From Phototrophicaceae bacterium (GTDB lineage Bacteria; Chloroflexota; Anaerolineae; Aggregatilineales; Phototrophicaceae), in assembly GCA_965214105.1 (NCBI GenBank), contig OZ243934.1, positions 96,374 through 160,373 on the forward strand: DNA of 64,000 nucleotides. The letters run 5' to 3'. Below, piece after piece: positions 1,298 through 62,408 of this stretch; positions within the stretch are counted from its first letter, which is position 1; the number at the start of each line of letters is the position of its first letter. A program made the position numbers and the translations under genes. The notes under the pieces are model-generated. The model had not been told where the DNA came from. It searched no databases and saw only the letters and a program-made list of their open reading frames with translations.

Positions 1298-2236
1298 CTA
1301 CTGGATGCGCCGGCGATTGATTTCAAAGCGGAAGATATCGTCTCTGGCATAGCCGCCGGTGACATCCAGCGTCATCTGTTCTTCGCTGATGCGGCTTAGG
1401 TCCAGGTCGGCATAGAGGATCGTCTCTTCGCCATAAACTGGCTCGACCAGGTATGCGCCATCGGGGGCGATGACCGCGCTGCCGCCATTCAGCAGCAGGG
1501 CATCCGCCGACGCAGACCAGCCAGGCAGCAGGTCCAGCTCGGTGGGAAAGTCAGACGCGGGCATGATGCTGCCGATGGCAAGCACAAAAGTACGCCCCTC
1601 GAAGGCATAATGACGACTGGCGATTTGGTGCATTTCTTTGACGGCGGGCCACAGTGCCAGGTGGATGGCTTCGTTGCTGATGTGCAGCGCCTGGCGGGCA
1701 TGGGGCATCCAGTGTTCCCAGCAGATGAGGCTGCCCACGCGCCCGGCGGCGGTATCGACCGCGCTCAAACCAGCGCCATCGCCCGGCGCCCAAAGCAACT
1801 GCTCGGTGTAAGTGGGGCGGAGCTTGCGGTGGTGGTTGGCGATCGCGCCGTCGGCGTCAATCGTTACGATGCTGTTGTAGAGGCTGCGGTTGCCGCGCCC
1901 GCTGGCGACGCGTTCGTTGAAGCCCAGCACGAGGACGATGCCCTGCTCGCGCGCATGACCCCGAAGCCGATTCAGCTCGGGGCTATCGAGCGCCAGGCTG
2001 TTGCTGGCTAAGCGGGCATAGAGGCGCTTGGTCGGCGGATGATCCCAACGGGCATAATCCAGCGCATAATCCAGCCAAGCCGGGTAGCCGGGGAAGAAAG
2101 TCTCGCCGAATGCAACCAGCTGCGCGCCCCGCCCCGCCGCCTCGCTGATTAGCGAAAGCGCTTTGGCGACCGTTCGCGCCAGGTCATAATAAACAGGGCG
2201 AGCCTGAACCAGGGCGACGCGGACGCATTTGCCCAT
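1298..2236 (-). CDS. nitrilase / carbon-nitrogen hydrolase family protein
   Basis: 312-aa ORF with catalytic triad contexts GETFFPGY (Glu), HRKLRPT (Lys) and LICWEHWMP (Cys). Confidence 0.9.
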   Translation of the reverse strand: MGKCVRVALVQARPVYYDLARTVAKALSLISEAAGRGAQLVAFGETFFPGYPAWLDYALDYARWDHPPTKRLYARLASNSLALDSPELNRLRGHAREQGIVLVLGFNERVASGRGNRSLYNSIVTIDADGAIANHHRKLRPTYTEQLLWAPGDGAGLSAVDTAAGRVGSLICWEHWMPHARQALHISNEAIHLALWPAVKEMHQIASRHYAFEGRTFVLAIGSIMPASDFPTELDLLPGWSASADALLLNGGSAVIAPDGAYLVEPVYGEETILYADLDLSRISEEQMTLDVTGGYARDDIFRFEINRRRIQ

Positions 2237-2254
2237 CGAGACCGAAGCCCGGCG

Positions 2255-2554
2255 CTAGCCGTCGAGCACCGCGCGAACGCGGAACTGCTCGCTGTCGCTA
2301 GCGGGGGCATTGGCGAGCGCCTCGGCGACTGGCAGCGCTGGGCTTGCCTGATCGAGGCGCATCACATTGGTCAAGGGCAGCACGGAGGAAGTGGGGTCGA
2401 TATGCGAGGTATCCAATTCTTCTAGCTTTTGAAAGTAATCCAAGATGGCGGAGAGCTGGCGCTGATAGCGGGCGACATCGCGCTCGCTCAATTCCAGGCG
2501 CGCCAAATCGGCAATGGCGCGGACGTCCGCAGCTGACAGTGTCGATTCCGCCAT
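2255..2554 (-). CDS. gatC: Asp-tRNA(Asn)/Glu-tRNA(Gln) amidotransferase subunit C
   Basis: ORF 2255..2587. The internal ATG at 2554 is preceded by a GAGGTGA RBS. Sequence LARLELSERDVARYQRQLSAILDYFQKLEELDT...PLTNVMRLD fits the GatC pattern. Confidence 0.85.
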   Translation of the reverse strand: MAESTLSAADVRAIADLARLELSERDVARYQRQLSAILDYFQKLEELDTSHIDPTSSVLPLTNVMRLDQASPALPVAEALANAPASDSEQFRVRAVLDG

Positions 2555-2645
2555 GGCTTCACCTCGGCAAGTTTGCTCACTCGGCACCAGTGTAACGCGC
2601 CTCGCCCGCGCTTCACAGGCTCAAGTCGGCGGGGAGCGGGCGGCC

Positions 2646-2679
2646 GGGCAATCGCTTCAACTGTTTTTTCGCCACAGAG
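2646..2679. repeat. solo C-type terminal repeat abutting the IS110 element
   Basis: GGGCAATCGCTTCAACTGTTTTTTCGCCACAGAG is near-identical to the left terminus of the element at 34569-34605. Confidence 0.45.
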
Positions 2680-2738
2680 TTGCTCGCCCGTAATTCGGGG
2701 CAGCCACAAAAACACAACCATGTCGCGAATGCGAGCGT

Positions 2739-3968
2739 TTAGATAGTTTCAGGGAATCGTAACTTCATCCGACTCGGATTATACGGTAAACCGCCGTGGC
2801 GGCCTTGATGATATAAACTGGTCATGGCTTTATTGCAGCACGCGGATACTGATTTGCGAAAGCCTGCTTTAGCTCTATATTGTACTTGCCACTGTTTCAA
2901 TGGGTGCTCATGGTTTCGCAATAACCAATTACGCATTTGCATGAGGAGATGTCGCTTGGCATGATTATTTCCTAAGGCTTTCGAGGTTTTAAGGACTTTC
3001 CCGGCAGAAACAAGAGTGTTCGGGGCGACCCCTAAAGCCTTACACCAAGCTCTTGATGTTGAATATCGTTGCCAAAAGTCCGATCCCATTTCACCAATTA
3101 GTCGTAAAGCTACGAGCCAGTTTACTCCTGGTGTCGTGGACATCCAAGCGATCTGAGGCGCTAGCTCAAAATGTTCGATATGATTTAGTGCTTGTTGTTC
3201 TCGGATTCTAATTCTTTGCTCTTGAACAAGTAGGTCAATTCTTAGCACTTCAAGTTCCTGACGAAGCCAAGTCGGGAGTTCTTCCGTCTTCCCCATTGCC
3301 TCTATCAATCTTGGGCGGCTGCTAGGTGAACCTTTCCAGTGATTCTGAACAATCATTTCCGCCGCGTCCTCTGTCTGAGAAAGCGCTTCCAGAAACGCCC
3401 GGCCTGATTGGGTTCTCAACGTAGTTTCCCGGAAGATATTTATTCCAAACTGCGCAAGTTCTTGATGAACCCGTTGCTTAACTTTAGTTAATGCTTTTCT
3501 GTCGCGGTCATAATTCCGCAAGTTGCTACGAATCTCCATTTGTTGGGCATCTGGAACATTGGAAGTTCTTAGGGGAAAAGTAGCGGCTAGCATGGCTAGA
3601 TTTGTCGCATCCGCCTTATCCGACTTGCCCTCTATTCGAAGTAGTGCCGTGACTTGAGCGGGATTGATGATGTGTACATTCAGACCAAGTTTTCGGCAAG
3701 CGTGATAAAAAGTCAAATGATAATTTGCGGTCGATTCTAGAACTATGAACTCCACTTTGTTCTGTTTGAGCCACTTTGCAGCTGAATTCGCTTTTGCCTG
3801 AGTCTGAGGTATCTGCCGAATTTCCTTTGTCTGTGATTTGAAGTTCAAAAGCGAGACAACGACATAGTCTGCGTCTACATCGCAACCTGCTGTGCAGTCA
3901 TAGCGACCCGCCACAGCGAAATCGCCTTGCGAGATGCGAACGCGGTTATGTTTCGTAGATTGTACCAT
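2739..3968 (-). CDS. IS110 family transposase (DEDD recombinase)
   Basis: 409-aa ORF. N-terminal DEDD-type motifs are GCDVDADYVVV, FIVLESTANYH and GKSDKADA. The C-terminal Transposase_20-like region contains TTPGVNWLVALRLIGEMG. Confidence 0.9.
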   Translation of the reverse strand: MVQSTKHNRVRISQGDFAVAGRYDCTAGCDVDADYVVVSLLNFKSQTKEIRQIPQTQAKANSAAKWLKQNKVEFIVLESTANYHLTFYHACRKLGLNVHIINPAQVTALLRIEGKSDKADATNLAMLAATFPLRTSNVPDAQQMEIRSNLRNYDRDRKALTKVKQRVHQELAQFGINIFRETTLRTQSGRAFLEALSQTEDAAEMIVQNHWKGSPSSRPRLIEAMGKTEELPTWLRQELEVLRIDLLVQEQRIRIREQQALNHIEHFELAPQIAWMSTTPGVNWLVALRLIGEMGSDFWQRYSTSRAWCKALGVAPNTLVSAGKVLKTSKALGNNHAKRHLLMQMRNWLLRNHEHPLKQWQVQYRAKAGFRKSVSACCNKAMTSLYHQGRHGGLPYNPSRMKLRFPETI

Positions 3969-8895: not shown

Positions 8896-9144
8896 GTTTA
8901 AACTTTCGGCGCTAGGAACGGCCGGCAATTTGGAGGGCTCGTGTTGACGGAAAAGAGTAAGGGAATAGCAGTGATGATTGGCGTCGGTCTCGCGCTTGGC
9001 GCCTTGTCACTGGCAAACAACATCTAACACCGCCCGTTTATGATTATTATCCGCTGGTATGGTATGAGAAGGTCTTCTATGGGCTGGATTATGATGACGC
9101 CTACAGCTAGCTGAATGGAACATATCTTCCAAGAAAGGAATAGA

Positions 9145-10182
9145 ATGCCAATTATTCAAGCGAAGCAACTAAGCCAATTCATCGCGCAGATCTTGGGCGC
9201 GGGCGGCGCGCGGGCGGATTATGCCGCGATCGTGGCTGAACATCTTGTCGATGCCAACCTGGCTGGGCACGATTCGCATGGCGTTATCCGCACGCCTCAT
9301 TATGTTCGGTCCATCAAAAAAGGCGACTTGCACCCAAGCGCTGAGCCAGACATCGTTGAAGAAACCGCCTCGATGGCGCAGATTTGCGGCAACTGGACTT
9401 TTGGCCAGGTCATCGCCAAAGGGGCAACCGAGCTGGCCATCTCGAAGGCGCGCGACCAGGGGGTTGCTTTGGTCTCCATGTACCATGAGGGGCATACCGG
9501 GCGGCTGGGCAGCTATGCCGAGATGGGCGCGGAAGCCGGCATGGCATCGATGATTTGGGATGGCTGCCTCGGCGGACCGCGCTCGGTGGTTGTGCCATTG
9601 AATGGCACCGGGCGCAAGCTCGGCGCCAACCCGATCGCAATCGGTTTCCCCAGTGAAACCTATGGCACGATTCTGCTTGATTTCGCCACCTCGATTTCGG
9701 CGGCCGGCAAGGTGATGGTGGCGGTGGACAAAGGCGAGCAGCTGCCGGGCGAATGGATCGTCGACGCGGATTGGCAGCCAACCGCTGACCCAACGCAGTT
9801 AGCGAAAGGCGGCGCGCTGCGGCCGATGGGCTTGCCATTCGTCGGGCACAAAGGGTATGCCCTCGCGATGATGGTTGGGCTTTTCAGCCTGATGGCGTCG
9901 CTGCGCTCGGATAATCAGCCGCCGCTGGAAGACCGCTGGGGCACGGTGATTCTGATGATCGATATCTCGCGTTTTGGCGCGCTGGATGTCTTCCGCAGCC
10001 AAGTCGACACGATTATCGACTTTGTGAAGACCGACCCGCTGGCGGGCGAGGTGCTCCACCCGGGCGAAGTTGAAGCCCGCACGCGGCGGGAGCGGCTGGC
10101 GAATGGCATTAACCTGCCGGCGGCGACCTGGCGCGAGATCAAGACCTGCGCCGAAGGCTTGGGGCTTGCCGTCGCCGAGTGA
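9145..10182 (+). CDS. Ldh_2 family (malate/L-lactate/ureidoglycolate-type) dehydrogenase
   Basis: HLVDANLAGHDSHGVIRTPHYV motif. The ATG at 9145 is preceded by AAAGGA. The track ORF starts at 9115. Confidence 0.85.
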   Translation: MPIIQAKQLSQFIAQILGAGGARADYAAIVAEHLVDANLAGHDSHGVIRTPHYVRSIKKGDLHPSAEPDIVEETASMAQICGNWTFGQVIAKGATELAISKARDQGVALVSMYHEGHTGRLGSYAEMGAEAGMASMIWDGCLGGPRSVVVPLNGTGRKLGANPIAIGFPSETYGTILLDFATSISAAGKVMVAVDKGEQLPGEWIVDADWQPTADPTQLAKGGALRPMGLPFVGHKGYALAMMVGLFSLMASLRSDNQPPLEDRWGTVILMIDISRFGALDVFRSQVDTIIDFVKTDPLAGEVLHPGEVEARTRRERLANGINLPAATWREIKTCAEGLGLAVAE

Positions 10183-10284
10183 GGCGTCGGCGCGGGCATC
10201 GGGGCATCTGTCCCCAGCCGCCGACATTGATTATTCAAATCTCCGGCAGGTCCGCGATTCGCTGAAACGGAGGCCGGGCGGCCG

Positions 10285-11229
10285 ATGACAAAGCAAGCGG
10301 ACTTGTACCAGGCGCTAAAGGCAACGAGCAGCCCCGACTCTCGCCGGGACCTCGCCCTGCAGCTGCTGGCAAAGACGCAGCGGCGGCAGTACCTCGACGA
10401 ATGCCTGCGCACGCTTAGGTCGGAGCGGGTAAGAGCCAAGCTGGACGAAAGCCATCGCCCCGTTCTGCGGGAGAAATACCTGGCTTTCCACGCCGATGGC
10501 AAAGGCGATAAAGCCGGCCTGCTGCGTGAGAGCTTGACGCGCCTGCTGGTCCACATCGAGCATCCCGCTGACGCCGACATTTATAAACTGGGCGTCGAAA
10601 CCTATTACCGACAGCCGATTGATGATGTCGCGCAGAACCTGCGGGCAGCCGCGCTGGCTGGCTTGGTGCCGATTGACCGGCGCCTCGCCTGCCTGTATGC
10701 CACCCGCTTTCTAAGCGAGCCAAGCACCTCGGTCTTCAATTGCGAGCCAGCGATGACTGCGGTTGATGTGCTGGTCGCTTCTGATGAGCGGCTGCCTATC
10801 TATCAGTTTTTGCTGCGCGGCGGCTTGGACATGGCGGCGACAGGGCGCGGCGAACTGACCGGCAAAGCGCTGGAATCGCTGGGCGGCGACTTTCCTGTCG
10901 CGCTCTATGAAGACTTAATCGAGCAATACCAAGCGCTGGACCAACCGACGGCGTCGATGGGCATTATCAACAGCATCATCGAGGGACGGTCCGCCGCGCT
11001 TTACGATCGGCTGGAGGAGCTGATTCTTTCGACGCGCGCTGAAGACCTGCGGGCTTACGGGCTGGTGATGATGGCGGCGGCCCGCGTTGATGAATTGGGC
11101 GAGCGCTTGCTGCGGCTGGCGAAGCGGGCGCGGAGGCAGGACCTGCCCCGGTTCATCGAGGCGCTTGAGATCTGTCATCTGCCAGCGCGAGAAGAAACCC
11201 TGGCAAGCTTGCGCCGCCGGCAGGGCTAG
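10285..11229 (+). CDS. hypothetical helical-repeat (HEAT-like) protein
   Basis: 314-aa ORF with consistent high-GC third-position bias. No recognisable catalytic motif. Confidence 0.5.
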   Translation: MTKQADLYQALKATSSPDSRRDLALQLLAKTQRRQYLDECLRTLRSERVRAKLDESHRPVLREKYLAFHADGKGDKAGLLRESLTRLLVHIEHPADADIYKLGVETYYRQPIDDVAQNLRAAALAGLVPIDRRLACLYATRFLSEPSTSVFNCEPAMTAVDVLVASDERLPIYQFLLRGGLDMAATGRGELTGKALESLGGDFPVALYEDLIEQYQALDQPTASMGIINSIIEGRSAALYDRLEELILSTRAEDLRAYGLVMMAAARVDELGERLLRLAKRARRQDLPRFIEALEICHLPAREETLASLRRRQG

Positions 11230-27519: not shown

Positions 27520-27595
27520 TCCTTACGCGGGCGCAGATCTTAACTGGCTTAAATTATACTTCATATGACGCTGATAGCCTATGCTGCGCCAGCGC

Positions 27596-27929
27596 GGGAG
27601 TGGTGAATATCGTGGATATGCCCATTTCACAAACCCCACCCCCGGCCCCTCCCGACGGGTCAGTGTCGGCGGGCTGTGTCTACGCGCCCTACGCGACCCC
27701 GATGAATCAGGGAGGGGAGCATTGCTAGCAAATCCTGAGTCCGAGCCTTTACAAACTCCGAAAAAGATACATAGCTCCCCTTCCCTAGCTCGCTGGGGAA
27801 GGGGCTGCGCCGCGTGGACACTGGCCGGTCGGGGATGGGGTCGAAAAACCGAAGACGATCGACCAGTAGCGGACAAGTCTTACAATTCAGCGTGAGCAGG
27901 CTTTATATCCACCGAATTCACCACTCCCC
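27596..27929. repeat. mosaic hairpin-rich MITE-like element, copy B
   Basis: Bounded by GGGAGTGGTGAAT (27596-27608) and ATTCACCACTCCCC (27916-27929). The interior shares the CCCCTTCCCTAGCTNGCTGGGGAAGGGG hairpin and GGTCGGGGATGGGGT modules with the other copies. Confidence 0.75.
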
Positions 27930-29263: not shown

Positions 29264-29405
29264 GCAGTTTCTCGGCTGCTTATCATATCATAGGCCGCCT
29301 ATTCTACATTTGCCGCAATATGCCCGCGCGCGCCAGCACAGGGAATCGCCCCCGCCATAGCTCCCCCAAGCGCCTAAGCGCCGATTGGAACAGGCGGCTG
29401 GGCAG

Positions 29406-30476
29406 TCAATCGGAATAGACCGCCTCGCTCAAGCGCCAGCTGGCGCGCGCCTCGATATCAAGCGGGCTGCGATGCCCCATCAAATAGCGGACATGAGCCG
29501 CCGCGCCAATCATAGCGGCGTTGTCCGTGCAGAGAAATAGGGGCGGAAAACATACTGGCACACTGAGGCGGTCCCGAAGCTTCTGGCGCAACATCGCATT
29601 CGCGCTAACGCCGCCTGCCAGATACAGGGCATTCACAGCGAAATCCCGCGCGGCGCGGCTGGCGCTGTTCACCAGAGCGTCGGTAAGCGCATCCTGAAAG
29701 GCCGCCGCGACATCGCTGATATTCAGGCCAGCGCGCAATTGCGCCCGTTTCTCGGCGCGGCGCAATCGTTTGCCGCGCTGGCGAGCGCTGGGCTGGATGG
29801 TCGATGCGCGCATCACCGCCGTCTTCAAGCCGCTGAAGCTGAAGTCATAGGCGCCTTTGGTCTTGGCGCGCGGGAAGTGATAGCGCCCGATAGCGCCAGT
29901 TTTCGCCGCCTCTTCGATGGCCGGCCCGCCGGGGAAGGGCAAGCCTAGCAGGCGGCCAACCTTGTCAAAAGCCTCGCCAGCCGCGTCATCTATCGTCCCG
30001 CCGATGCGCTCATAGACCCCGTGCGCAGGCATGACCAGCAGCTCGCTGTGCCCACCCGAGACGATCAAAGCCAGAACGGGGAATGCAAGCTCGCGAAAGT
30101 CTGGCGCCAGCCAAAGCGAATAGACATGCCCTTCCAGGTGGTTGATGCCAAGCAGCGGCAGACCCGTCGCCAGCGCCAGCCCCTTGGCGAAGTTGAGGCC
30201 CACAAGCAGCGAGCCGACCAAGCCAGGACCTTGCGTGACGGCGATGGCATCGAGCTCGGCATAAGTCATATCGGCTTCCGTCATCGCCTGCGCCGCCACC
30301 GCGCTGATGGTTTCGGCATGGGCGCGCGAGGCGACCTCGGGGAAGACGCCCCCATATTGGGCGTGCAGGTCAATCTGCGAAGCGACAATGTTCGAGCGGA
30401 TCTTCGCCCCATCGCTGAGGACAGCGGCGGCGGTTTCATCGCAGGACGTTTCAATAGCGAGGATGGTGGGCATGGT
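29406..30476 (-). CDS. tsaD: tRNA N6-adenosine threonylcarbamoyltransferase
   Basis: ILAIETSCDETAAAV, GINHLEGH, SGGHSEL. ATG at 30476 (MPTILAIE). Confidence 0.95.
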   Translation of the reverse strand, partial: TMPTILAIETSCDETAAAVLSDGAKIRSNIVASQIDLHAQYGGVFPEVASRAHAETISAVAAQAMTEADMTYAELDAIAVTQGPGLVGSLLVGLNFAKGLALATGLPLLGINHLEGHVYSLWLAPDFRELAFPVLALIVSGGHSELLVMPAHGVYERIGGTIDDAAGEAFDKVGRLLGLPFPGGPAIEEAAKTGAIGRYHFPRAKTKGAYDFSFSGLKTAVMRASTIQPSARQRGKRLRRAEKRAQLRAGLNISDVAAAFQDALTDALVNSASRAARDFAVNALYLAGGVSANAMLRQKLRDRLSVPVCFPPLFLCTDNAAMIGAAAHVRYLMGHRSPLDIEARASWRLSEAVYSD

Positions 30477-30510
30477 CGGGCATTGTAGCACTGAAATTGA
30501 TGGGCGCGGA

Positions 30511-30518
30511 TGTATAAT
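30511..30518 (+). promoter_or_regulatory. extended -10 promoter candidate (TGTATAAT) for the ATPase/TOPRIM cassette
   Basis: TGTATAAT lies 39 nt upstream of the ATG at 30557. No convincing -35. Prediction is from hexamer match only. Confidence 0.25.
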
Positions 30519-30556
30519 ACGGGGCGAGTGAGAGGCTCCGCGTGGGAAGGTGCGCT

Positions 30557-31651
30557 ATGTACAAGTCATTTCGGGTGAAGAATTTCCGCTGCTTCAAGGA
30601 CTTGCAGATCAGCGATTTGGGACGGGTGAACCTGATTGCGGGCAAGAACAACACGGGCAAGACGGCCTTGATGGAGGCGATGTATATACTTACCAAGCCA
30701 TTAATACCTCAAACACTTTTCGACCTGTTGAGGATTCGCGGCATTGAAGTCGGAACCAATCGCAAAGAGGCTTGGTCACTATATTTCCACAGACGCGATA
30801 AAAGCCATGCTATCGAACTAATAGCAGACCAGAACATTCCGACAACACTCAGCAAATCTTTGTTGCTCAGTGAAGTTCCAACTGATGATGAATATACAGA
30901 ACATCTCAATAAGTATCTACTCAAGGCGAGAGAACTGGGATTTCTTCAAGATAATAGTTCATTCACTCTAGGATTTGACGATGCTCTGCTGAAGTTCTTG
31001 CTGACGCACTGCAAAGATATGACGGAGATATATTTGCCATCACGATCTGAATTGCCTATCTATGCTAAATCTCTTGGACAATTTGAGTCATATTTTAGTC
31101 CAGCAACAGGCGGCCAATCCAATCAAGAATTAGCGGATGTTTTCAGCATGTCGGTCAGTGAGAACAGAATAGATGAGCTAATAGAGTTGCTCAATATTTT
31201 CGAGCCAAAACTAAACAATCTATGGCTGCTCACTATTCCCGGCGGCTTGACAATTTGGGCTCATGTAAATGGAAATCGTTTTCCCCTTCAATCTATGGGG
31301 GGGGCAACAAATCGTATTGCCCAGATTTATATGACACTTGTGGCGAGGCGGCCGCAAGTCATCTTCATCGACGAAATCGAAAACGGCATCCACCACAGTG
31401 TACAAAAGCAAGTCTGGCAAGCCATCGGGCAGCTAGCTCGTGAACAAAACATCCAGGTCTTCGCAACAACACATAGTTACGAAATGATAGAAGCTGCTCA
31501 CGAAGCTTTCAAAGGCGACGACCCGTATGATTTCCGCTTTCACCGCCTAGATAGAGACATCGAAACCGGGAATGTCAAAGCAGTGACTTACAACGATTTC
31601 GGTATGAAGGCGCTGGCAAACTTTGACTTCGACCATGAGGTACGCGGATGA
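30557..31651 (+). CDS. ABC-type (AAA_21/AAA_15-like, RecF/SMC-fold) ATPase
   Basis: Walker A AGKNNTGKT, signature-like QSMGGATNR, Walker B VIFIDEIENGIH, H-loop FATTHS. GGAAGG RBS lies 6 nt before the ATG at 30557. Markedly AT-richer than the flanks. Confidence 0.85.
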   Translation: MYKSFRVKNFRCFKDLQISDLGRVNLIAGKNNTGKTALMEAMYILTKPLIPQTLFDLLRIRGIEVGTNRKEAWSLYFHRRDKSHAIELIADQNIPTTLSKSLLLSEVPTDDEYTEHLNKYLLKARELGFLQDNSSFTLGFDDALLKFLLTHCKDMTEIYLPSRSELPIYAKSLGQFESYFSPATGGQSNQELADVFSMSVSENRIDELIELLNIFEPKLNNLWLLTIPGGLTIWAHVNGNRFPLQSMGGATNRIAQIYMTLVARRPQVIFIDEIENGIHHSVQKQVWQAIGQLAREQNIQVFATTHSYEMIEAAHEAFKGDDPYDFRFHRLDRDIETGNVKAVTYNDFGMKALANFDFDHEVRG

Positions 31652-32328
31652 CGCAGTTGATCCCGGCCGGGAAGACCCGACTACTGTTAGTAGAGGGACG
31701 AGACGACAAAGCGTTCTTCATCCAGCTAGGTAAGCATCTTGGTTTCGATGACGCGACACCAATCCACATTCTAGAATACGGTGGCAAAGATGGAATCGCC
31801 CAGCGCTTATTCCAGTTGACTCAACTGCAAGAATTTGGCAAGGTTTCCGACATTGGTGTGGTACGCGACGCGGATTATGAGACTGACGCCTTCCAGAGTA
31901 TTCAAGACGCAATACGCACCTGCAATCGCAACAGCCCCTTAGAGTTGCCCGTCCCGCGATTTGCGATTGAGCCCACATGTGGGCAGCCAGCAATTTCTGC
32001 GTTATTGCTACCGGCAATCGGCCGCGAAGGCATGCTGGAAGATTTGGTGCTTGAGGCGCTAAGCGACGACCCTGTGATCACTTGCGTCGACGAATTCTTT
32101 GCATGTTTACAGCGATCCGACATCCAAGTCGCCAAACATCGCCTGCCCAAAGCCAAAGCCCGAGTCTTCATCAGCGGTAAGAACGCATCCGATACGGCAG
32201 TGGGCGATGACATCAGCAGAAAATACTTCTCCGATATCTACCGAATGAGTTGGTGGAAACCAGAATATTGGGACCACCCCGCCTTCGACGACGCCAAAGC
32301 CTTCCTCAGCCAACTCCTCGCCGACTAG
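31648..32328 (+). CDS. TOPRIM-like protein (DUF3226/DUF4276/RloB/DUF4435 class; exact family unresolved)
   Basis: N-terminal RLLLVEGRDDKAFF (conserved Glu16), VVRDADYE (D74-x-D76), downstream acidic GMLEDLVLE. ATGA overlap with the ATPase stop. Confidence 0.7.
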   Translation: MTQLIPAGKTRLLLVEGRDDKAFFIQLGKHLGFDDATPIHILEYGGKDGIAQRLFQLTQLQEFGKVSDIGVVRDADYETDAFQSIQDAIRTCNRNSPLELPVPRFAIEPTCGQPAISALLLPAIGREGMLEDLVLEALSDDPVITCVDEFFACLQRSDIQVAKHRLPKAKARVFISGKNASDTAVGDDISRKYFSDIYRMSWWKPEYWDHPAFDDAKAFLSQLLAD

Positions 32329-32389: not shown

Positions 32390-33766
32390 ATGACCACCCT
32401 CAACCACCGCCACGGCTGGCTGCTTAGCGCAGTGGCGGGCGTTCTCATATTTGTCGCTTTCACCGCTTGGGGCGGCTCCCCAGCCGAGACGAACCTCGGC
32501 TTATTTTGGCTGCAGGCGGGGCTTTTCTTGCTGGTCATCTGCGCCTTCGTTCTGGCATTTTGGCATCTGCTGCTGCGCCCCCTCGCGCCGAACCTGCGCC
32601 AGCCCTACCCCGATAGCCTGTCGCTGCAAGCGCGCCAGGCACTTTCCTTGATTCTGGCAAGCGGCGGCATCGCGACTTACATTGGCGGCGTCTGGGATGA
32701 ATTGTGGCACCGCAGCTATGGCATCCCCTTCGGCGAGGATCTGTTCTGGCGTCCTCATCTGCTGATGTATTTTGGCTTTGCCACGGCGGCCCTCGCCGGC
32801 TTTTGGGCGCTGCGCTATCTAAATCGCCAGCTGCGCGGCAGTTTTCAGCAGCGCTTCCGCTCGAACAAGCTGGTTGGGCTGCTGATTTTGAATGCCGCCT
32901 TCTTGCTTTACGCCCTGCCAGCCGACCCACTGTGGCACTGGATTTTCGGCGAAGACATCACCGCCTGGAGCATTCCGCATCTGATTCTCTTGCTGAGCTT
33001 CATCCTGACCCAATTCCTGGCTTTCTGTTTATACGTATCGACAAGCCCGCTTGAGCCCTGGCGGACGATTCTCTCGCTGCGGGCTCCTGATTTGTTTTCC
33101 CTGCTGATCCTGGCTGGCATTCAATTGCTCTGGCTGCAGCTGATGCTCATCGATTGGGACGCGACCTTGGCGGGCCTCCGCTTTGAGTGGCTCGGATTGT
33201 ATCGTCCCGAGTGGCTGCTGGCGGCGAATCTGCTGGCTTGCCTTGCCTTCATCGGCGTCCTCGCCACCCGTGTCTTGCGCTGCGCCGGCGCGGCGACGGC
33301 TGTGGGATTGCTCGCCCTGGTCATTCGCGTCGGCTTGATTGAGCTCTTCGATGCGGACATGCTGCAATTCGTCGCCTGGGTTGCGGCGCTGCTGCCTTTG
33401 CTCGCCATCGACATCTGGGCCTATTACTGCAGCGCTATCCGCCAGCGCGAGCCGGGCTGGCGCGGCACCGCGCTGGTCCTCATCGCCGCCATGGCGATCA
33501 ATGCCCTGGTCATCCGCAGCCTCTACAACCTGGGCGATTCGGACAATCTGAGCTATGCCGCGGCGGTCATCGTCACCAGCATCGGCATGAGCTGGTTCGC
33601 CAATCGGGTGGCGCAGGCTTTGCTGCGCCAGCGCGAACCAGCCAGCGCCGCCATTGGCTCCATTGGCCCAGCCAAGAACATCCAGCCGGCGCTATCCTTC
33701 GGCATAATGGCTGCTTTTCTCGCCTTCATTTTCTTCTTCATCACGACGGCGGCGCCGCCCCTTTGA
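32390..33766 (+). CDS. polytopic membrane protein of unknown function (~12 TM)
   Basis: 458-aa hydrophobic ORF. Internally repeated motif: DELWHRSYGIPFGEDLFWRPHLLMYFGF and DPLWHWIFGEDITAWSIPHLILLLSF. Confidence 0.6.
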   Translation: MTTLNHRHGWLLSAVAGVLIFVAFTAWGGSPAETNLGLFWLQAGLFLLVICAFVLAFWHLLLRPLAPNLRQPYPDSLSLQARQALSLILASGGIATYIGGVWDELWHRSYGIPFGEDLFWRPHLLMYFGFATAALAGFWALRYLNRQLRGSFQQRFRSNKLVGLLILNAAFLLYALPADPLWHWIFGEDITAWSIPHLILLLSFILTQFLAFCLYVSTSPLEPWRTILSLRAPDLFSLLILAGIQLLWLQLMLIDWDATLAGLRFEWLGLYRPEWLLAANLLACLAFIGVLATRVLRCAGAATAVGLLALVIRVGLIELFDADMLQFVAWVAALLPLLAIDIWAYYCSAIRQREPGWRGTALVLIAAMAINALVIRSLYNLGDSDNLSYAAAVIVTSIGMSWFANRVAQALLRQREPASAAIGSIGPAKNIQPALSFGIMAAFLAFIFFFITTAAPPL

Positions 33767-34548
33767 GCTGGCGCAAAAGCGGTATACTTAGGCGCGTGAC
33801 CCCAAAAGAGAGAGGTACCCGCCCCGCGCGTATCGCCGCTGCTGTGACCTGGCTCATGCTGGTCCTCTTGGCCGGGGCTGGCTGCAGCGCGGTTGAGCTG
33901 TACCGGGGCAATGCCAGCGCCACCGCCGCCGAAGCTGAAGCCGCCGCAACGGAGAACCCAACCATCTCGGCGCTGGCAGGTGCCCTGCTCTCGGCCGAAG
34001 CGACGCGGCAAGCGCTATCGAACAGCGCCACCGCCTCAGCCGCGCTGCCGGAGTTGACGCCGGCGCCACCGCCCGCTATCGAAGAAGCGAACTTCTTTCC
34101 CGCTTCAGCCGAGAGCCGGCTTTATGGCAAGGTACCCATCGACAGCGACCGCCTGAATATCATTGCCGCGCTCGCCATTGACGCTGACGGGCAGCTGCTG
34201 GCCGCCACCCGCGCCGGTGAGATATACGCCCTGCCCGATAGCGATGGCGATGGCACCGCCGATGAAACGCGCCAGATTTTTGCCGATGAGGCGCAGGACC
34301 TGGGGCAAGTTGCCGGCATGATCGTCCGCGGCGAGGGGCTGATTCTGCTAAATGGCGAGCGGCTCAGCCTGCTGCGCGACCTGGACGGCGATGGCATAGT
34401 CGACAGCGTGACGCATCTCAGCGAGGGGCTGCCGGCCGATCAAAGCCCGCTGCAGGCGAGCAACGGCATCCTGCAAGCGCCGGATGGACGGCTCTTCAGC
34501 GTCGATATTAGCGCCGGCGAGATTTTTCAAATTGTCCTGCGCGAGTAA
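33763..34548 (+). CDS. putative lipoprotein with beta-propeller-like DGDG repeats (start uncertain)
   Basis: Lipobox-like LLAGAGCS. Repeats include DADGQLLAAT, DSDGDGTADE and DLDGDGIVDS. A TTG start overlaps the upstream stop. Confidence 0.5.
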   Translation: MSWRKSGILRRVTPKERGTRPARIAAAVTWLMLVLLAGAGCSAVELYRGNASATAAEAEAAATENPTISALAGALLSAEATRQALSNSATASAALPELTPAPPPAIEEANFFPASAESRLYGKVPIDSDRLNIIAALAIDADGQLLAATRAGEIYALPDSDGDGTADETRQIFADEAQDLGQVAGMIVRGEGLILLNGERLSLLRDLDGDGIVDSVTHLSEGLPADQSPLQASNGILQAPDGRLFSVDISAGEIFQIVLRE

Positions 34549-34568
34549 GCGAGTAGCGCCCTATGCCC

Positions 34569-34859
34569 CCAGGACAATCGCTTCAACTGTTTTTCGCCAC
34601 AGAAACACAGAGAGCGCAGAGATTAATGTCTTTTGTTGGCGATTGTCACATCAATCTTGAAGATGTAGGGGCGACATTGAGTAGAACCAAGTTAGTCATG
34701 CAAATAACAATTCCGCAAGAAAACTCCCCTTCTCTAGCTTGCTGGGGAAGGGACCGGGGGATGGGGTAGAAAAGCGACATTTCTTTACTTGCATGACTTA
34801 CTTATAAGTACTTCTCTGTCTTTGTGGCGAAAAAATTTTGAGGAGATTGCACTGCCTGG
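34569..34859. repeat. C-type MITE-like element with ~45-bp imperfect terminal inverted repeats
   Basis: The left end is CCAGGACAATCGCTTCAACTGTTTTTCGCCACAGAAACACAGAGAG. The reverse complement of the right end is CCAGGCAGTGCAATCTCCTCAAAATTTTTTCGCCACAAAGACAGAGAAG. An internal long dyad (AGTCATGCAA / TTGCATGACT) encloses the CCCCTTC...GGGGAAGGG hairpin. Confidence 0.7.
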
Positions 34860-34924
34860 GGCAGCTAGGAGCGAGCTGACGCTTGAAAATGGCGCGGGAA
34901 GCTGGCATACTGGCGCGCGCTCAA

Positions 34925-34996
34925 GGGCGCGTGGCGCAATGGCAGCGCAGTTGACTTTTAATCAATTGGTTGCAGGTTCGAATCCTGCCGCGCTCA
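34925..34996 (+). tRNA. tRNA-Lys (anticodon UUU)
   Basis: Hand-folded cloverleaf. Acceptor GGGCGCG/CGCGCTC (one G-U). D stem GCGC/GCGC. Anticodon stem GTTGA/TCAAT with loop CTTTTAA. T arm GCAGG-TTCGAAT-CCTGC. Discriminator A. CCA is not encoded. Confidence 0.9.
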
Positions 34997-35081
34997 TTCA
35001 TGACTATACTATCGTGTGAATCCGCATCATCTTGGCTTAGCTAAACGCATGTTTCCCACGCAGGAGGAAAGCTGAAAGAAA

Positions 35082-37295
35082 ATGACGAGCAAACATTGTC
35101 GCCTTCACGTGCCTATGACTCCGTCCCCCCGCCCGCAAATATGTTCTCATTTCAGCTTTCTCGCCCTCTGCCTGATCGCGCTCGCCACAGTCTTCGGCGC
35201 GCCCAGACCGGCCCAAGCCCAAAAGCCGGCTGCCCCCAGCAATTTTCGCCTGCTGGAATTGAGCGCCGACAGCATCGTTCTCGCCTATGATACTGTGGAC
35301 GGCGAAACACTCTCCGGCTTAACCAGACGCAATCCAGATAGTATCTCCTCTTGGTTTGCGGTTTCGTATACAACAGCGAGAAGCTCCGGAACGACAAAAT
35401 TAACGCTAGGCAGCACGGAACGGCAAGCTGTCCATGTGGCGGGTCGTACCTCAGAATATCGATTGCAGGTATATACGAATAGTCAATTGACTGTATACAC
35501 TGAATACGCGTACTTGTCCATATATGTGCCGCCGGCTGCGCCTAGCAGCTTGAGTGCGACCGCCGCCCAAACCAGCCTCACGCTCAGCTGGACCAACCCA
35601 AGCAGCGACAGCGCGGTCAGCGCCCAAGTAATGATCCGCCCGGATAGCGGCAGCTGGCCCTCATCCTGGACCGTCGCCGGCAGCGCTACCAGCCATACCT
35701 TCAACGGCTTGACGGCCGATACCAATTACGAGATGCGCGTCCGCGCCACCAACTCCGCCGCTGACGCCGGTCCCGCCGCTTCGCTCAGCAAGCGCACGCT
35801 GGCTGCGCTGGGTGCGCCTTCAGCTACACCGACGTCTACGTCTACACCGACGTCTAGTCCTACGCCGACGCCCACGTCTACGCCTACACCGACGTCTGTG
35901 CCGGCGCCGTCCGCGCCGACGGGCTTGAGCGCCAGCGGCATCACGCAGACCAGCATCACCCTCAATTGGACGAAATCCAGCGGGGCGACCTATTATGAAG
36001 TCCGCCGCGGCACAACTGGCAACTTCACGCGCCTGGGCGATGTGGCGTCGCACATTTTCACCGGCTTGAACGCGGGCACGAGCTATACGCTGCAAGTGCG
36101 CGCTGGCAACACCGGCGGCACCTCTGCCAGCGTGCAGACAACCGCCAGCACCAACAATGTCCCAGCGCCGTCCAAGCCAGCCGCGCCGACGGGCTTGAGC
36201 ACCAGCGGCAGCACGCAGTCCAGCATCACCCTCAGTTGGACGAAATCCAGCGGGGCGACCTTCTATGAAGTGCGCCCTGGTACAACTGGCAGCTTCACGC
36301 GCCTGGGCGATGTGGCGACTTACACTTTCACGGGCTTGAGCGCGGACACGAGCTATACGCTGCAAGTGCGCGCCGGCAACACCGGCGGCACCTCTGCCAC
36401 CGCGCAGACGACCGCCAGCACCAGCAACGGCGATGCCTTGCCGGCAGATATTGTGCAGCCGACAATCGACCCACCACCAACCAATCCGCCACCAACCAAC
36501 CCACCGCCAACCAATCCGCCGCCAACCAATCCACCACCAACCGACCCGCCGCCAACCGATCCACCACCAACCGACCCACCGCCAACCGATCCACCGCCAA
36601 TCAACCCAACGCCAACCGACCCGCCGCCAACCGACCCACCAGCGGTTGAGGACTCGCCAGCGCAAACTTCACAAGATTCGGGAGAGGAGCGCCAAGCCAG
36701 CGACTCCAGCCAACAGACAGCGCCAACAGCACAAGCGACGCAGAGCCTCACCCAAACTTTGAACAACCTGCCGCCGGGCATCGAGGTCAACAATTGGGCA
36801 ATGGGCACGCAAGGCAAGCGCGTTGACGCCCGGGGCGTCGGCAACCAGGCAATCATCGAACAAGGGCTGCTGGATGCGATTGATATGTGGGGTTATATCT
36901 CGCCAGGCACCGAGGTCTGCTTCGCGCAGCATGGCAAGCTGGTGCTGCTGGACGCCGCTTATTCGCCGCGGCTGGCAATGCCGCTGGCTGCTTATCAGCG
37001 CGATGGCATGACCTGCGCCACCATCGACCGCGCCGGCACCGTCGTGCTGCTGCAAAGCGCCGCGCCCTTGCCAGCCAGCCAGGACCTGGCGCCGCCGATG
37101 GGCAATTGCATGGTGCAGCTGCTGTATCCGCTGAACTTCCGCGCCAGGCCGGCCGGGCAGATCATGCAAGTCTTGCCGGCCAGCATCCGGCTAAGCGTTT
37201 TGGACTATCGCGAGGGCTGGTACCAGGTTGATTTTTATGGTCAGCAGGGTTGGCTCAGCGCCAATTATGTACAAGCGCAGGGCGACTGCGGCTGA
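35082..37295 (+). CDS. secreted protein with multiple fibronectin type III domains, PT/PPTNP linkers and C-terminal SH3b domain
   Basis: Signal-like N-terminus. Repeated PSAPTGLSASGITQTSITLNWTKSSGATYYEVR FN3 modules. The C-terminal end LSVLDYREGWYQVDFYGQQGWLSANYV is bacterial SH3-like. Confidence 0.8.
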   Translation: MTSKHCRLHVPMTPSPRPQICSHFSFLALCLIALATVFGAPRPAQAQKPAAPSNFRLLELSADSIVLAYDTVDGETLSGLTRRNPDSISSWFAVSYTTARSSGTTKLTLGSTERQAVHVAGRTSEYRLQVYTNSQLTVYTEYAYLSIYVPPAAPSSLSATAAQTSLTLSWTNPSSDSAVSAQVMIRPDSGSWPSSWTVAGSATSHTFNGLTADTNYEMRVRATNSAADAGPAASLSKRTLAALGAPSATPTSTSTPTSSPTPTPTSTPTPTSVPAPSAPTGLSASGITQTSITLNWTKSSGATYYEVRRGTTGNFTRLGDVASHIFTGLNAGTSYTLQVRAGNTGGTSASVQTTASTNNVPAPSKPAAPTGLSTSGSTQSSITLSWTKSSGATFYEVRPGTTGSFTRLGDVATYTFTGLSADTSYTLQVRAGNTGGTSATAQTTASTSNGDALPADIVQPTIDPPPTNPPPTNPPPTNPPPTNPPPTDPPPTDPPPTDPPPTDPPPINPTPTDPPPTDPPAVEDSPAQTSQDSGEERQASDSSQQTAPTAQATQSLTQTLNNLPPGIEVNNWAMGTQGKRVDARGVGNQAIIEQGLLDAIDMWGYISPGTEVCFAQHGKLVLLDAAYSPRLAMPLAAYQRDGMTCATIDRAGTVVLLQSAAPLPASQDLAPPMGNCMVQLLYPLNFRARPAGQIMQVLPASIRLSVLDYREGWYQVDFYGQQGWLSANYVQAQGDCG
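36471..36640 (+). repeat. ~11 x 15-bp in-frame tandem repeat (PPTNP/PPTDP)
   Basis: Read directly from CCACCACCAACCAAT/CCGCCACCAACCGAC units. Confidence 0.85.
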
Positions 37296-60576: not shown

Positions 60577-62295
60577 CTAGCCCCTGGCTTCGGTCTCTGG
60601 CTCGGGCGGATTCTCCAGGGCGGCCAGCGTGGGCATGTTCGCCTTCTTGGCGTGGACGCCGGTCGCGCCATCGGGGCGGGTGCCGCGGCTATCCAAGCTT
60701 TGCATATGCCCATCGGCATCAAAGGTGCGGACTTCAAAGCGATATTCGCCTTCCTGGAAGCGCCAGTCATAACGCCAGACGACCCATGTCAGCTCGGAAA
60801 GCGGCTGACGCAGCTGCGCTTCTTCCCAGTCGCCACCGTTGACGCTGACTTCGACCTTGGAAATCATCTTGGCGCCAGCGTAGGCGATGCCGCCTACCGG
60901 CACAATGTAGCCGTCATCATCTTTTAAGATAGAATCCGTTGACACCGCATCGACGACTGAGGTCCGGTTCACGATGGCGTCGACGCTCCAACCGCGGCGC
61001 ACCCAATACCCCTCAGCCCAGGCATCGACGAATTCGATGCTCTTGATCCACTTAGGCTGCTTCATGCCATAGCGATCTGGGAGATAGATACGCAGCGGGA
61101 AACCGTGCTTCTGCTTCAGCGGCTGGTCATCCCATTCGTAGGCGAACATGACGCGCTCTTCCGCTTCGACCAAATCAAGCATGACATACTCGTCAAAGTT
61201 ATCGGCGCCGGTGATTTTCATCGCGACCGCATTCGCTTGCGGCTTGACGAAATCGAGGAAATCCTTCATGCGGAAGCCAGACCATTTGGTGGTGCTGATC
61301 AGCGTGCCGCCAATGCGATTGCTGATGCAAGACAAGGTGATGAAGCGGTCAATACGCTCGAACTTGTCGTGCAGGTCTTGCAGCGAGAGGCTAGCCGGAT
61401 TATCGACCAGCCCGCTGACCTCAAGCCGCCACTCGTTGGAATCGATGACCGGCGGGCGCGAGCTGATGTCGATGCGGTAGTGGTCGTCCAGCGGCGTATA
61501 CTCGGGGCGGGTGCCAGGGGCCGGCTCCAGGCGGTCAGCCGCATTCGGCAAGACATTGCCAGCGCCATCGGTCGCGGCGTCGGCGGGGATCGCCGAGACG
61601 ACGCCCCCCTCGCCCGGCTGGCGGCCCAGGAGCGTGCCCAAGCCGGCGCCAATAACCGTCAGCACCGCGCTGGCGCCACCGACGCGCACCATGAATTGAC
61701 GGCGATTGAGCGGCTGGACGGTGACAGTCTCGCCTGTTGCTTCGTCTGTCTTGGTTTTGCCGTCGCTATGCGCCAGGTCGTTGTAAATCCAGTTTGCCGC
61801 CATCCCCCACAGCGCGAAAGCCAGCAGCACCCAAACCATCTGCACCGGTACTGGCGCGCTCGCCGTCAGATTCACCTGCGCCGAAATTAGCATCATGGCC
61901 GCGCCAACTGCCAAGCCCAGAAGCAAGCCCGGGAAGAGATTGCGCGCGCTTGTTTTGCTGCGGTTCATCAGCCAATAAAGGAGCGTGATGGCAAGCGCGC
62001 CCAGAGCGAGGAAGGCGCCCAAGCCCATCAGCTGCTCGGCAGTTTTTGCCGCGGCTGATGTCTCGCCCAAGTTGAAGGCGATGATCAACTCGACCATCAT
62101 GTCGATGCCAAAGGTCAGCAAGGCGCCAGGCAGTAGGCGCGATACAAAATCAAAGACGTCAAAGGGAATAAAGGGCAAGCCAGCGATTTGGTCAGCCAAA
62201 AACAGCAGAGACGTTAGCGCCATCGTCAGCAAGCCGCCAGACAAAAAGCCGAGCCGCAGTGAAGGTTTTCGTATCGTATCCATATTCTTCAACAA
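60577..62295 (-). CDS. molybdopterin-dependent oxidoreductase (sulfite oxidase/YedY fold) fused to an N-terminal polytopic membrane domain
   Basis: Oxidored_molyb-like ITLSCISNRIGGTLISTTKWSGFRMKDFL. ~5 N-terminal TM segments. Internal Tat-like NRRQFMVRVGGASAVLTVIGAG. Confidence 0.8.
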   Translation of the reverse strand: MLKNMDTIRKPSLRLGFLSGGLLTMALTSLLFLADQIAGLPFIPFDVFDFVSRLLPGALLTFGIDMMVELIIAFNLGETSAAAKTAEQLMGLGAFLALGALAITLLYWLMNRSKTSARNLFPGLLLGLAVGAAMMLISAQVNLTASAPVPVQMVWVLLAFALWGMAANWIYNDLAHSDGKTKTDEATGETVTVQPLNRRQFMVRVGGASAVLTVIGAGLGTLLGRQPGEGGVVSAIPADAATDGAGNVLPNAADRLEPAPGTRPEYTPLDDHYRIDISSRPPVIDSNEWRLEVSGLVDNPASLSLQDLHDKFERIDRFITLSCISNRIGGTLISTTKWSGFRMKDFLDFVKPQANAVAMKITGADNFDEYVMLDLVEAEERVMFAYEWDDQPLKQKHGFPLRIYLPDRYGMKQPKWIKSIEFVDAWAEGYWVRRGWSVDAIVNRTSVVDAVSTDSILKDDDGYIVPVGGIAYAGAKMISKVEVSVNGGDWEEAQLRQPLSELTWVVWRYDWRFQEGEYRFEVRTFDADGHMQSLDSRGTRPDGATGVHAKKANMPTLAALENPPEPETEARG

Positions 62296-62408
62296 TCTCC
62301 ATCACAATTGATGCCCACATTATATATGAGCTTTGCTGTCATTTCTATTTCCGACAGATTACAGACCGATTACAATCCAGCGGGCGGACTGTTGAAAGCG
62401 CGCCACCG

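Follow-up and report, generated by a model that had tools for sequence, protein, structure and literature searches.

What is an AT-rich pair of genes doing between tsaD and a membrane-protein gene of a Phototrophicaceae bacterium (Chloroflexota), and is it a foreign cassette, an old resident of the genome or something of both? We analysed a 64,000-nucleotide stretch of this organism (GenBank assembly GCA_965214105.1, contig OZ243934.1, positions 96,374–160,373 of the forward strand; the whole stretch is called the window below), in which an ABC-type ATPase gene is followed by a gene for a protein of the DUF3226 family. An earlier note, made from the sequence alone, had taken the two for a horizontally acquired abortive-infection module of the PARIS, AbiL or OLD type. 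We found that the pair occupies the same slot in every related locus sampled, yet its alleles move between lineages in modules, and we consider it probable, largely by analogy with known systems, that the locus encodes a sensor/effector pair similar to PARIS, in which the sensor domain can be swapped, a candidate phage defence.

The two co-directional reading frames described in the earlier note, and their overlap, were read directly in the sequence. The locus and its flanks are laid out as follows:

29406–30491, minus strand: tsaD, the conserved left flank, divergent from the pair (Pfam TsaD, 3.4e-91).
30542/30557–31651, plus strand: ABC ATPase reading frame, of AAA_15/AAA_21 and AbiLi/PDC-M38A type.
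31648–31651, plus strand: ATGA stop/start overlap of 4 nucleotides (nt), giving translational coupling.
31648–32328, plus strand: DUF3226 reading frame, 226 amino acids (aa), TOPRIM-type by its motifs, a presumed metal-dependent nuclease effector.
32390–33766, plus strand: polytopic, clade-specific membrane protein of 458 aa, the conserved right flank.

For the ATPase, the probable start codon is the ATG at 30557, which is preceded by GGAAGG and gives 364 aa, the length of database copy P0106 and one residue less than first counted; a GTG at 30542 would give 369 aa. A Shine-Dalgarno-like GAGG lies 7 nt upstream of the ATGA overlap, and the abutting arrangement of the two genes is also present in relatives and in Klebsiella plasmids. 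The flanking proteins are 96% (TsaD) and 95% (membrane protein, for which Pfam gave no match) identical to those of a near-conspecific locus, L062, and 67–80% and 53–77% identical, respectively, to those of other relatives. The AT-richness that had drawn attention to the pair was confirmed as a dip in sliding GC to 0.42–0.49 over 30500–31750, compared to 0.60–0.65 on either side, with a third-position GC (GC3) of 0.49 in the ATPase gene and 0.61 in the DUF3226 gene versus 0.74–0.79 in the tsaD, amine oxidase and membrane-protein genes. No significant direct or inverted repeats or att-like sites were found around the pair and, in agreement with the earlier note, no mobility genes were found near it in the window.

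To establish how widely the slot is occupied, we scanned for DUF3226 homologues in one genome per species, using an alignment of close homologues, which biases the loci towards one DUF3226 subgroup. This yielded 38 loci, all from Chloroflexota metagenome-assembled genomes (MAGs) labelled Anaerolineae, Aggregatilineales or Phototrophicaceae, and 30 of them share the gene order of the window: two GAF-cyclases, amine oxidase, tsaD (minus strand), ATPase, DUF3226 and membrane protein. To offset this DUF3226-selected sample, the locus was also sampled independently of the pair by seeding on the membrane protein alone. All six loci reached in this way (three close metagenome loci and three further look-ups, two of these look-ups picked because their contigs were missing from the ATPase and DUF3226 match lists) carry the pair; two further loci came via other proteins. 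Overall, the pair was present in 37 of 37 distinct related tsaD/membrane-protein loci from Aggregatilineales/Phototrophicaceae, with no empty slot, and it is a fixed resident of this slot throughout the sampled clade. Recent insertion as an island was rejected on these grounds, as every locus is occupied and flanking repeats, att-like sites and mobility genes are lacking, with composition alone looking foreign. The earlier note had named tsaD synteny across the clade at native GC as the mark of a housekeeping role; the synteny is there, but the pair is AT-rich in every locus measured (n = 30; GC 0.43–0.53, GC3 0.44–0.69 versus 0.67–0.86 in the flanks), with GC3 15–30 points below that of the flanks throughout. 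That the AT-richness has lasted at an ancestral locus suggests either that genes are still flowing in from a pool of lower GC or that composition is under selection.

What does move is the content of the slot. Pairwise identities of tsaD and amine oxidase are correlated across loci (r = 0.70), whereas flank identity has no such relation to the identity of the pair (r = −0.06 to 0.12 for the pair; in the comparison with tsaD and amine oxidase, about 0 for the ATPase and 0.07–0.15 for DUF3226). Plain vertical inheritance with fast evolution was rejected for this reason. Loci L006 and L017, for example, have flank proteins that are 95% identical and pairs that are 41% and 63% identical, while L003 and L004 share an ATPase at 93% identity with tsaD at 71%. 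The clearest comparison is with L062, whose flanking DNA matches that of the window at 96–100% identity for ~5 kb to the left and ~2 kb to the right, and which differs by the following replacement:

30650–32250, plus strand: segment replaced relative to L062 (allelic cassette), nucleotide identity 0.28–0.64, compared to 0.94–1.00 to its left and right.

Both boundaries are sharp, at about 30640–30680 and 32230–32265. The two genomes encode TsaD, amine oxidase and membrane proteins with identities of 96%, 97% and 95%, respectively, compared to 43% for the ATPase and 41% for DUF3226. The N-terminus of the ATPase is the same at 43 of 44 residues (K3 versus Q3) before an abrupt divergence, and the C-terminal 16 residues of DUF3226 (PAFDDAKAFLSQLLAD) are identical, which places both breakpoints inside the genes. 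Across 31 locus copies, over which module identities were computed, the ATPase falls into three parts:

30557–30688, plus strand: ATPase N-terminus, codons 1–44, conserved, with Walker A; left recombination anchor; mean pairwise identity 0.82–0.89.
30689–31363, plus strand: hypervariable central cassette, codons about 45–269; pairwise identity averages 0.11–0.45.
31364–31651, plus strand: ATPase C-terminus, conserved, pairwise identity 0.54–0.89; candidate partner interface.

The central cassette has a median pairwise identity of 21% (13–92%) and forms 25 classes at 60% identity among the 31 loci. It is also the most AT-rich segment (GC 0.43), and its identity is uncorrelated with that of every other module (r about 0.1). 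In contrast, the N- and C-terminal parts of the ATPase vary together (r = 0.66), and the C-terminal part covaries with DUF3226 (r = 0.56), which makes it a candidate interface with the partner. Four further close genome pairs again have a left boundary at codons about 25–45 and regain identity near Walker B, so that the left breakpoint recurs in five close pairs including L062. In the comparison of the window with L002, nucleotide identity rises to 0.78–0.88 from about 31400 onwards, and between L020 and L023 the central ATPase segment alone has been replaced. Within allele classes, dN/dS is 0.02–0.22 for the ATPase (0.03–0.22 for its central part) and 0.18–0.27 for DUF3226, similar to 0.13–0.24 for tsaD, and for the DUF3226 allele that the window and L002 have in common, dS is 0.51, versus 1.05 for tsaD of the two. 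Such low, tsaD-like ratios argue that the alleles are functional and old, and are exchanged rather than changing fast in place; runaway positive selection as the cause of divergence was rejected on the within-class range of 0.02–0.27.

Alleles inside the fixed locus thus move between lineages in modules, with the central ATPase as a separately exchanged cassette, and the part of the earlier claim that stands is this horizontal movement of alleles; the cassette as a whole is resident. We infer homologous recombination as the mechanism, for which the first ~44 ATPase codons, the surroundings of Walker B and the last ~20 DUF3226 codons would serve as anchors. Frequency-dependent selection on immune specificity would be expected to produce such a pattern. 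A locus that is always occupied, extremely polymorphic and crossed by alleles between species also carries the balancing-selection signature of recognition loci, and an intracellular, nuclease-based pair could in principle act as a self/non-self or gene-flow barrier, with each allele recognizing DNA or cytoplasm from cells of another allele and limiting recombination or fusion. We regard this as very improbable, given that the family offers no precedent for such a role, the operon has no surface or transfer component and frequent allele replacement by recombination shows the locus to be open to gene flow.

Profile searches identify both proteins, with E-values (9e-25, 1.5e-25 and 2.9e-53) that put the matches far beyond chance. 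The ATPase matches Pfam AAA_15 (88.5 bits, cut-off 32.1; 9.2e-25) and AAA_21 (61.5 bits, cut-off 27; 1.8e-16), the PADLOC model PDC-M38A (2.9e-53, profile positions 1–378 of 383) and the PADLOC AbiLi model PDLC02336 (3.9e-52, positions 1–326 of 340), while NCBIfam gave only sub-threshold matches such as MAD3 (46.4 bits versus 420). These searches and the module identities used a query starting at 30554, so their residue numbers are one higher than those of the 364-aa protein. The complete ATPase motif set reported earlier is present, and its key residues are invariant across 45 homologues:

30641–30664, plus strand: Walker A, GKNNTGKT; G29, K35 and T36 invariant.
31289–31315, plus strand: signature motif, QSMGGATNR, inside the central cassette; G248 and N252 invariant.
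31358–31381, plus strand: Walker B, VIFIDEIE, spanning the cassette boundary; D272 and E273 invariant.
31463–31477, plus strand: H-loop, ATTHS; H306 invariant.

An AlphaFold2 (AF2) model of the protein (pLDDT 87) has no predicted long coiled-coil, and in Foldseek this predicted structure matches SMC/Rad50 heads, PtuA, OLD 6p74, GajA and retron Eco8 (E about 1e-12). The ATPase is presumed to be the sensor or regulator of the pair.

The partner matches Pfam PF11536 (DUF3226; 90.6 bits, cut-off 27; 1.5e-25) over residues 11–224, corresponding to profile positions 2–207 of 208, so that the family calls suggested for both proteins proved accurate. PF11536 is annotated on 105 of 105 homologues, and PDC-M38B is also matched (4.2e-10, positions 4–179 of 219). 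Conservation of the acidic residues, which the earlier note had set beforehand as one point on which its proposal was to be judged, was borne out in 36 homologues (26–83% identity): E16, G17, D74, G128, C146 and C153 do not vary, conservation reaches at least 90% for D76 and E131, and K168 is nearly invariant. The main positions are:

31693–31695, plus strand: E16, the putative TOPRIM Glu.
31867–31875, plus strand: D74-x-D76, the putative TOPRIM DxD.
32038–32040, plus strand: E131, conserved acidic residue.
32083–32106, plus strand: C146/C153, invariant cysteines.

In the AF2 model (pLDDT 92), E16 sits just after the strand formed by residues 11–15 and D74-x-D76 ends the strand formed by residues 68–75 (strand 3). 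TOPRIM nucleases have been described with this layout, a Glu following strand 1 and a DxD closing strand 3 (PMC12065111), and the predicted strand order and motif placement are TOPRIM-like. The five top Foldseek matches in the PDB are C-terminal TOPRIM regions of class 2 OLD proteins, consistent with the OLD comparison in the earlier note, at a probability of 1.0 and an E-value of 3e-3 but with TM scores of only 0.44–0.50, and Pfam OLD-like_TOPRIM scores 17.5 bits, under its cut-off of 23.2. A family profile reaches PDB 2p62 (2.6e-7, across the LVEGxxD and VVRDxD motifs) and, weakly, AriB (8ux9; E = 0.59), in an alignment that includes a shared CVDxFF motif. The single DUF3226 sequence matched nothing in the PDB, 2p62 being reached by the profile search only, and an exact database look-up of the window protein returned no record. 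Grouped at 50% identity, this large family counts 6,249 clusters (E up to 1e-3). Our literature search found no publication on DUF3226, PF11536 or PDC-M38, and the function of the pair is for this reason inferred.

To place the pair, we compared it with six groups of known or candidate systems. First, both window proteins match the PDC-M38 models, the genes being adjacent, co-directional and overlapping by 4 nt, and the L062 pair and a Klebsiella plasmid pair match the same models. PDC-M38 is a computational PADLOC candidate for which there is no record of fixed-locus polymorphism or of a swappable central domain, and the suggestion that the pair is an uncharacterized subtype therefore holds. 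Second, PARIS, a class 4 OLD-like system, likewise splits an AAA_15/21 ATPase and a TOPRIM nuclease over two genes, its AriB aligns weakly with the partner profile at the Glu, DxD and CVDxFF motifs, and the trigger-facing parts of its ATPase are poorly conserved too (PMC11464382). However, the window DUF3226 protein scores 19.4 bits against DUF4435 (cut-off 27) and matches the PADLOC AriB model at 1.6e-4 over residues 11–80 only; AriA, which is about 55 kDa with IS1/IS2 coiled-coil insertions, is some 120 residues longer than the window ATPase, which matches AriA models partially, in two stretches (3.1e-24). PARIS is moreover typically phage-satellite-borne and patchy, whereas the window locus has a fixed chromosomal place and modules that reassort. 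PARIS membership was rejected because the pair has neither a DUF4435-type AriB partner nor AriA-type insertions.

Third, the ATPase fits the AbiLi model near full length (3.9e-52) and AbiL has the same two-gene ATPase/TOPRIM architecture (PMC13064643), but AbiL of Lactococcus is plasmid-borne with an RloB-type AbiLii partner, and no AbiLii/RloB match to the DUF3226 protein was found in PADLOC or Pfam at E up to 1. With an AbiLi-type ATPase and no AbiLii partner, AbiL membership was likewise rejected, and the earlier assignment to a PARIS or AbiL type fails on these defining partner domains. Fourth, MADS pairs the Mad3 ABC ATPase with a small, split TOPRIM protein, Mad4 (DUF4276), both of which are required for defence in P. 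aeruginosa (10.1101/2023.03.30.534895). The window DUF3226 protein matches the mad4 model weakly (1.2e-4), has no DUF4276 match, and its ATPase falls far below the MAD3 equivalog cut-off; no methyltransferase or other mad genes lie near the pair, the flanks being tsaD and the membrane protein. MADS membership was rejected because score, partner and neighbours all fail. Fifth, OLD class 1 and 2 proteins and GajA are the closest structural matches to the predicted ATPase head and TOPRIM region (6nk8, 6njw, 6p74, 8sm3), but fuse the two in one chain, and Gabija includes the UvrD-like helicase GajB; with two separate reading frames and no helicase found near the window pair, single-chain OLD and Gabija were rejected. 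Lastly, PH0156 of Pyrococcus horikoshii (PDB 2p62) is a solved DUF3226 member, a structural-genomics entry without an assigned function; the 50 best Foldseek matches of the DUF3226 model do not include it. Judged by its profile matches, the pair falls in the split ABC-ATPase/TOPRIM group and in PADLOC candidate PDC-M38.

As a working model, the locus would be a split OLD-superfamily module. The conserved N- and C-terminal halves of the ATPase would form the nucleotide-binding head, the central ~225-residue segment a specificity domain that senses the trigger and the C-terminus a nuclease-binding surface, with the putative DUF3226 TOPRIM nuclease as the translationally coupled effector. At rest the ATPase would keep the nuclease inactive, by analogy with PARIS and with pairs of an AAA antitoxin and a TOPRIM toxin. 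Once the variable domain reads a phage-derived cue, this and the binding or hydrolysis of ATP would free or activate the nuclease, which may then cleave an essential nucleic acid (tRNA or DNA) and arrest the infected cell. In PARIS, the ATPase senses a viral protein and frees the TOPRIM nuclease AriB, which cleaves tRNA-Lys (PMC11464382). A broader and more tentative proposal is that the pair beside tsaD serves the whole order as a core immune-specificity locus that is never empty, in which the sensor, and less often the nuclease, is drawn from dozens of ancient alleles. Cassettes recombining at conserved anchors inside the genes would pass these alleles from species to species, and balancing selection would keep them, as with MHC or fungal het genes; we consider this less likely than not.

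Several observations weigh against reading the locus as phage defence. Defence systems are normally patchy, and presence in all sampled loci at a core position is unusual for them; lasting AT-richness at an ancestrally resident locus is a further difficulty. No other defence gene adjoins the pair in the window, distant family members often have housekeeping neighbours and no match to a phage-borne DUF3226 homologue was found in PHROG or among phage genomes. The TOPRIM assignment has as its basis motifs, a predicted model and modest Foldseek scores, with a Pfam score under the cut-off, and the literature search found no experimental report for any DUF3226/PDC-M38 pair. Without the coiled-coil insertions and at its smaller size, the ATPase may also assemble differently from AriA. 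Finally, AriA and AriB of PARIS co-evolve and are rarely swapped (PMC11464382), unlike the two members of the window pair.

The pair also occurs outside the slot, and the ATPase gene lies immediately upstream of the DUF3226 gene in every homologue neighbourhood inspected. In Klebsiella and E. coli it makes up, besides replication-control genes, the sole cargo of 131 small plasmids of the non-mobilizable ColRNAI kind, two examples being:

1984–3731 of NZ_CP024435.1 (4167 bp; L065): plasmid pair, ATP-binding protein and DUF3226.
635–2382 of NZ_CP082125.1 (L066): plasmid pair, ATP-binding protein and DUF3226.

The Klebsiella plasmid pair has the accessions WP_012579087 and WP_012579086; its ATPase aligns over its full length to the window ATPase at 26% identity and matches the AbiLi model at 1.9e-58. 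The ATPase and DUF3226 genes are an autonomous two-gene unit. Such a unit could be a selfish toxin–antitoxin (addiction) module with no antiviral role, in which DUF3226 is the toxin and the ATPase its antitoxin. The death of cells that lose the pair would then keep it at the locus and on plasmids, and allele diversity would reflect competition between, or exclusion of, incompatible variants. Its status as sole cargo of 131 tiny plasmids, the occupation of 37 of 37 loci and the translational coupling of the genes all fit, and pairs of an AAA antitoxin and a TOPRIM_OLD toxin have been validated as toxin–antitoxin systems in E. coli (PMC10440598). We nevertheless consider this account unlikely. 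A discrete hypervariable domain whose dozens of old classes are each under purifying selection is not expected from addiction by itself, and replacement of whole alleles by recombination means that a resident pair can be displaced; toxin–antitoxin activity is in any case compatible with defence, as PARIS combines the two.

Some genomes carry a paralogous pair in a second conserved slot, where PIG-L, MFS and glycosyltransferase genes precede the ATPase and DUF3226 genes and PLP decarboxylase and DAHP synthase genes follow (L055/L024, L027 and L056, at about 8930–10700; one of these genomes also has the pair at tsaD). The window homologue of that PLP decarboxylase (62259–63833) has a molybdopterin oxidoreductase gene upstream and no pair. 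A second slot, constant presence of the pair at one core position, including in the unbiased samples, and the housekeeping neighbours of distant relatives could also indicate a repair or RNA-processing pair, RecF/RecR-like or RNase M5-like, kept clade-wide beside tsaD. A RecF model does match the ATPase N-terminus (1.2e-10), and RecR carries a TOPRIM domain as well. However, RecF matches at the Walker A region only, defence families give the best profile matches and near-conspecific genomes differ by about 58% of protein sequence at this locus alone. The genealogy of the pair is uncoupled from that of its flanks, its GC3 is foreign-like in 30 of 30 loci measured and possible decayed copies occur in L037, L038 and L060, all of which makes a housekeeping role improbable. 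The candidate decayed copies are a DUF3226 gene split over two frames in L037 (10001–10671) and in L038 (6774–8569), and an ATPase gene reduced to reading frames of 135 and 154 aa in L060 (6949–8000); some of these loci come from long-read MAGs, in which frameshifts may be assembly errors.

On whether homologous pairs sit in defence islands, which the earlier note had suggested checking, the evidence is mixed: variable DUF2326/ABC-3C, OLD and PARIS-like genes adjoin the slot in some relatives, whereas the window and several distant loci have housekeeping neighbours only. In 9–10 of the 37 relatives an insert of ~3 kb between the amine oxidase and tsaD genes encodes a DUF2326 ABC ATPase with CTD10/MC6-MC7 or HNH_2 partners (ABC-3C-like), at 5276–7688 in L001, 4981–7732 in L057 and 4082–6833 in L058, for example; the window has a 143-bp gap here (29264–29405). 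This variable neighbour contrasts with the pair, which is present in every locus. Some relatives carry extra OLD-type genes a few kilobases downstream (L057 12432–15364, L058 15997–17095, L063 12713–13368), including an AAA_15 gene interrupted by an insertion sequence (IS) and a separate OLD-like_TOPRIM gene, together with long AAA_15/AAA_21 ATPases of about 630 aa that are truncated at the locus end (one, in L058, with an OLD-like_TOPRIM domain) and an N6_N4_Mtase/Mrr_cat fusion. A lone Phage_portal-domain gene lies beside an FHA-domain gene a few kilobases from the locus in L001 (18981–20414), L057 (15412–16824) and L064 (11013–12455), with no further phage genes visible.

The divergent region between tsaD and the ATPase gene contains one further feature:

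30491–30518, plus strand: candidate sigma-70-like promoter, CTGAAA-16-TATAAT, with 10 of 12 consensus matches.

The TG directly abuts TATAAT without TGn spacing and so does not form a canonical TGnTATAAT extended −10, contrary to the earlier note; coordinate 30511 is part of the −10 box and non-coding. This region is 97–99% identical to that of L062 and about 80% identical to that of L020. The only match in an Rfam scan was to tRNA. A tRNA-Lys(UUU) gene lies at 34925–34996 (plus strand), 2.6 kb downstream of the pair in a lower-GC stretch (34500–35250), and its closeness to the pair, given that AriB cleaves tRNA-Lys (PMC11464382), is probably a coincidence. Just beyond it, the reading frame at 35082–37295 (plus strand) gives a protein of 737 aa that looks secreted and combines three fn3 domains with long PPTNPPPT repeats rich in Pro and Thr, in a region of marked strand composition skews. 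To the left, a stretch of ~350 bp between the GAF-cyclase and amine oxidase genes (27547–27897) is missing from L062; it occurs once in the window and matches nothing in Rfam.

Modules that combine an ABC ATPase with a TOPRIM domain (OLD, Gabija, PARIS, AbiL, MADS3-4 and retron effectors) are among the commonest bacterial immune architectures. Within that architecture DUF3226 would be a large branch, a candidate defence family so far without an experimental record, and the pair on Klebsiella and E. coli ColRNAI plasmids is a tractable homologue for a first functional test. The main interest of the tsaD slot lies less in this family assignment than in an always-occupied, hyperpolymorphic locus with a cleanly bounded, exchangeable domain. 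Defence is usually pictured as patchy mobile islands; here, in contrast, a pair appears fixed in the core genome of the order, yet its alleles turn over between genomes that are ~97–99% identical in the flanks, which is an unusual population pattern. Dozens of alleles in one genomic and protein scaffold amount to a natural experiment on specificity, and since the alleles differ mainly in one delimited domain, trigger specificity should reside there, which chimeras could test.

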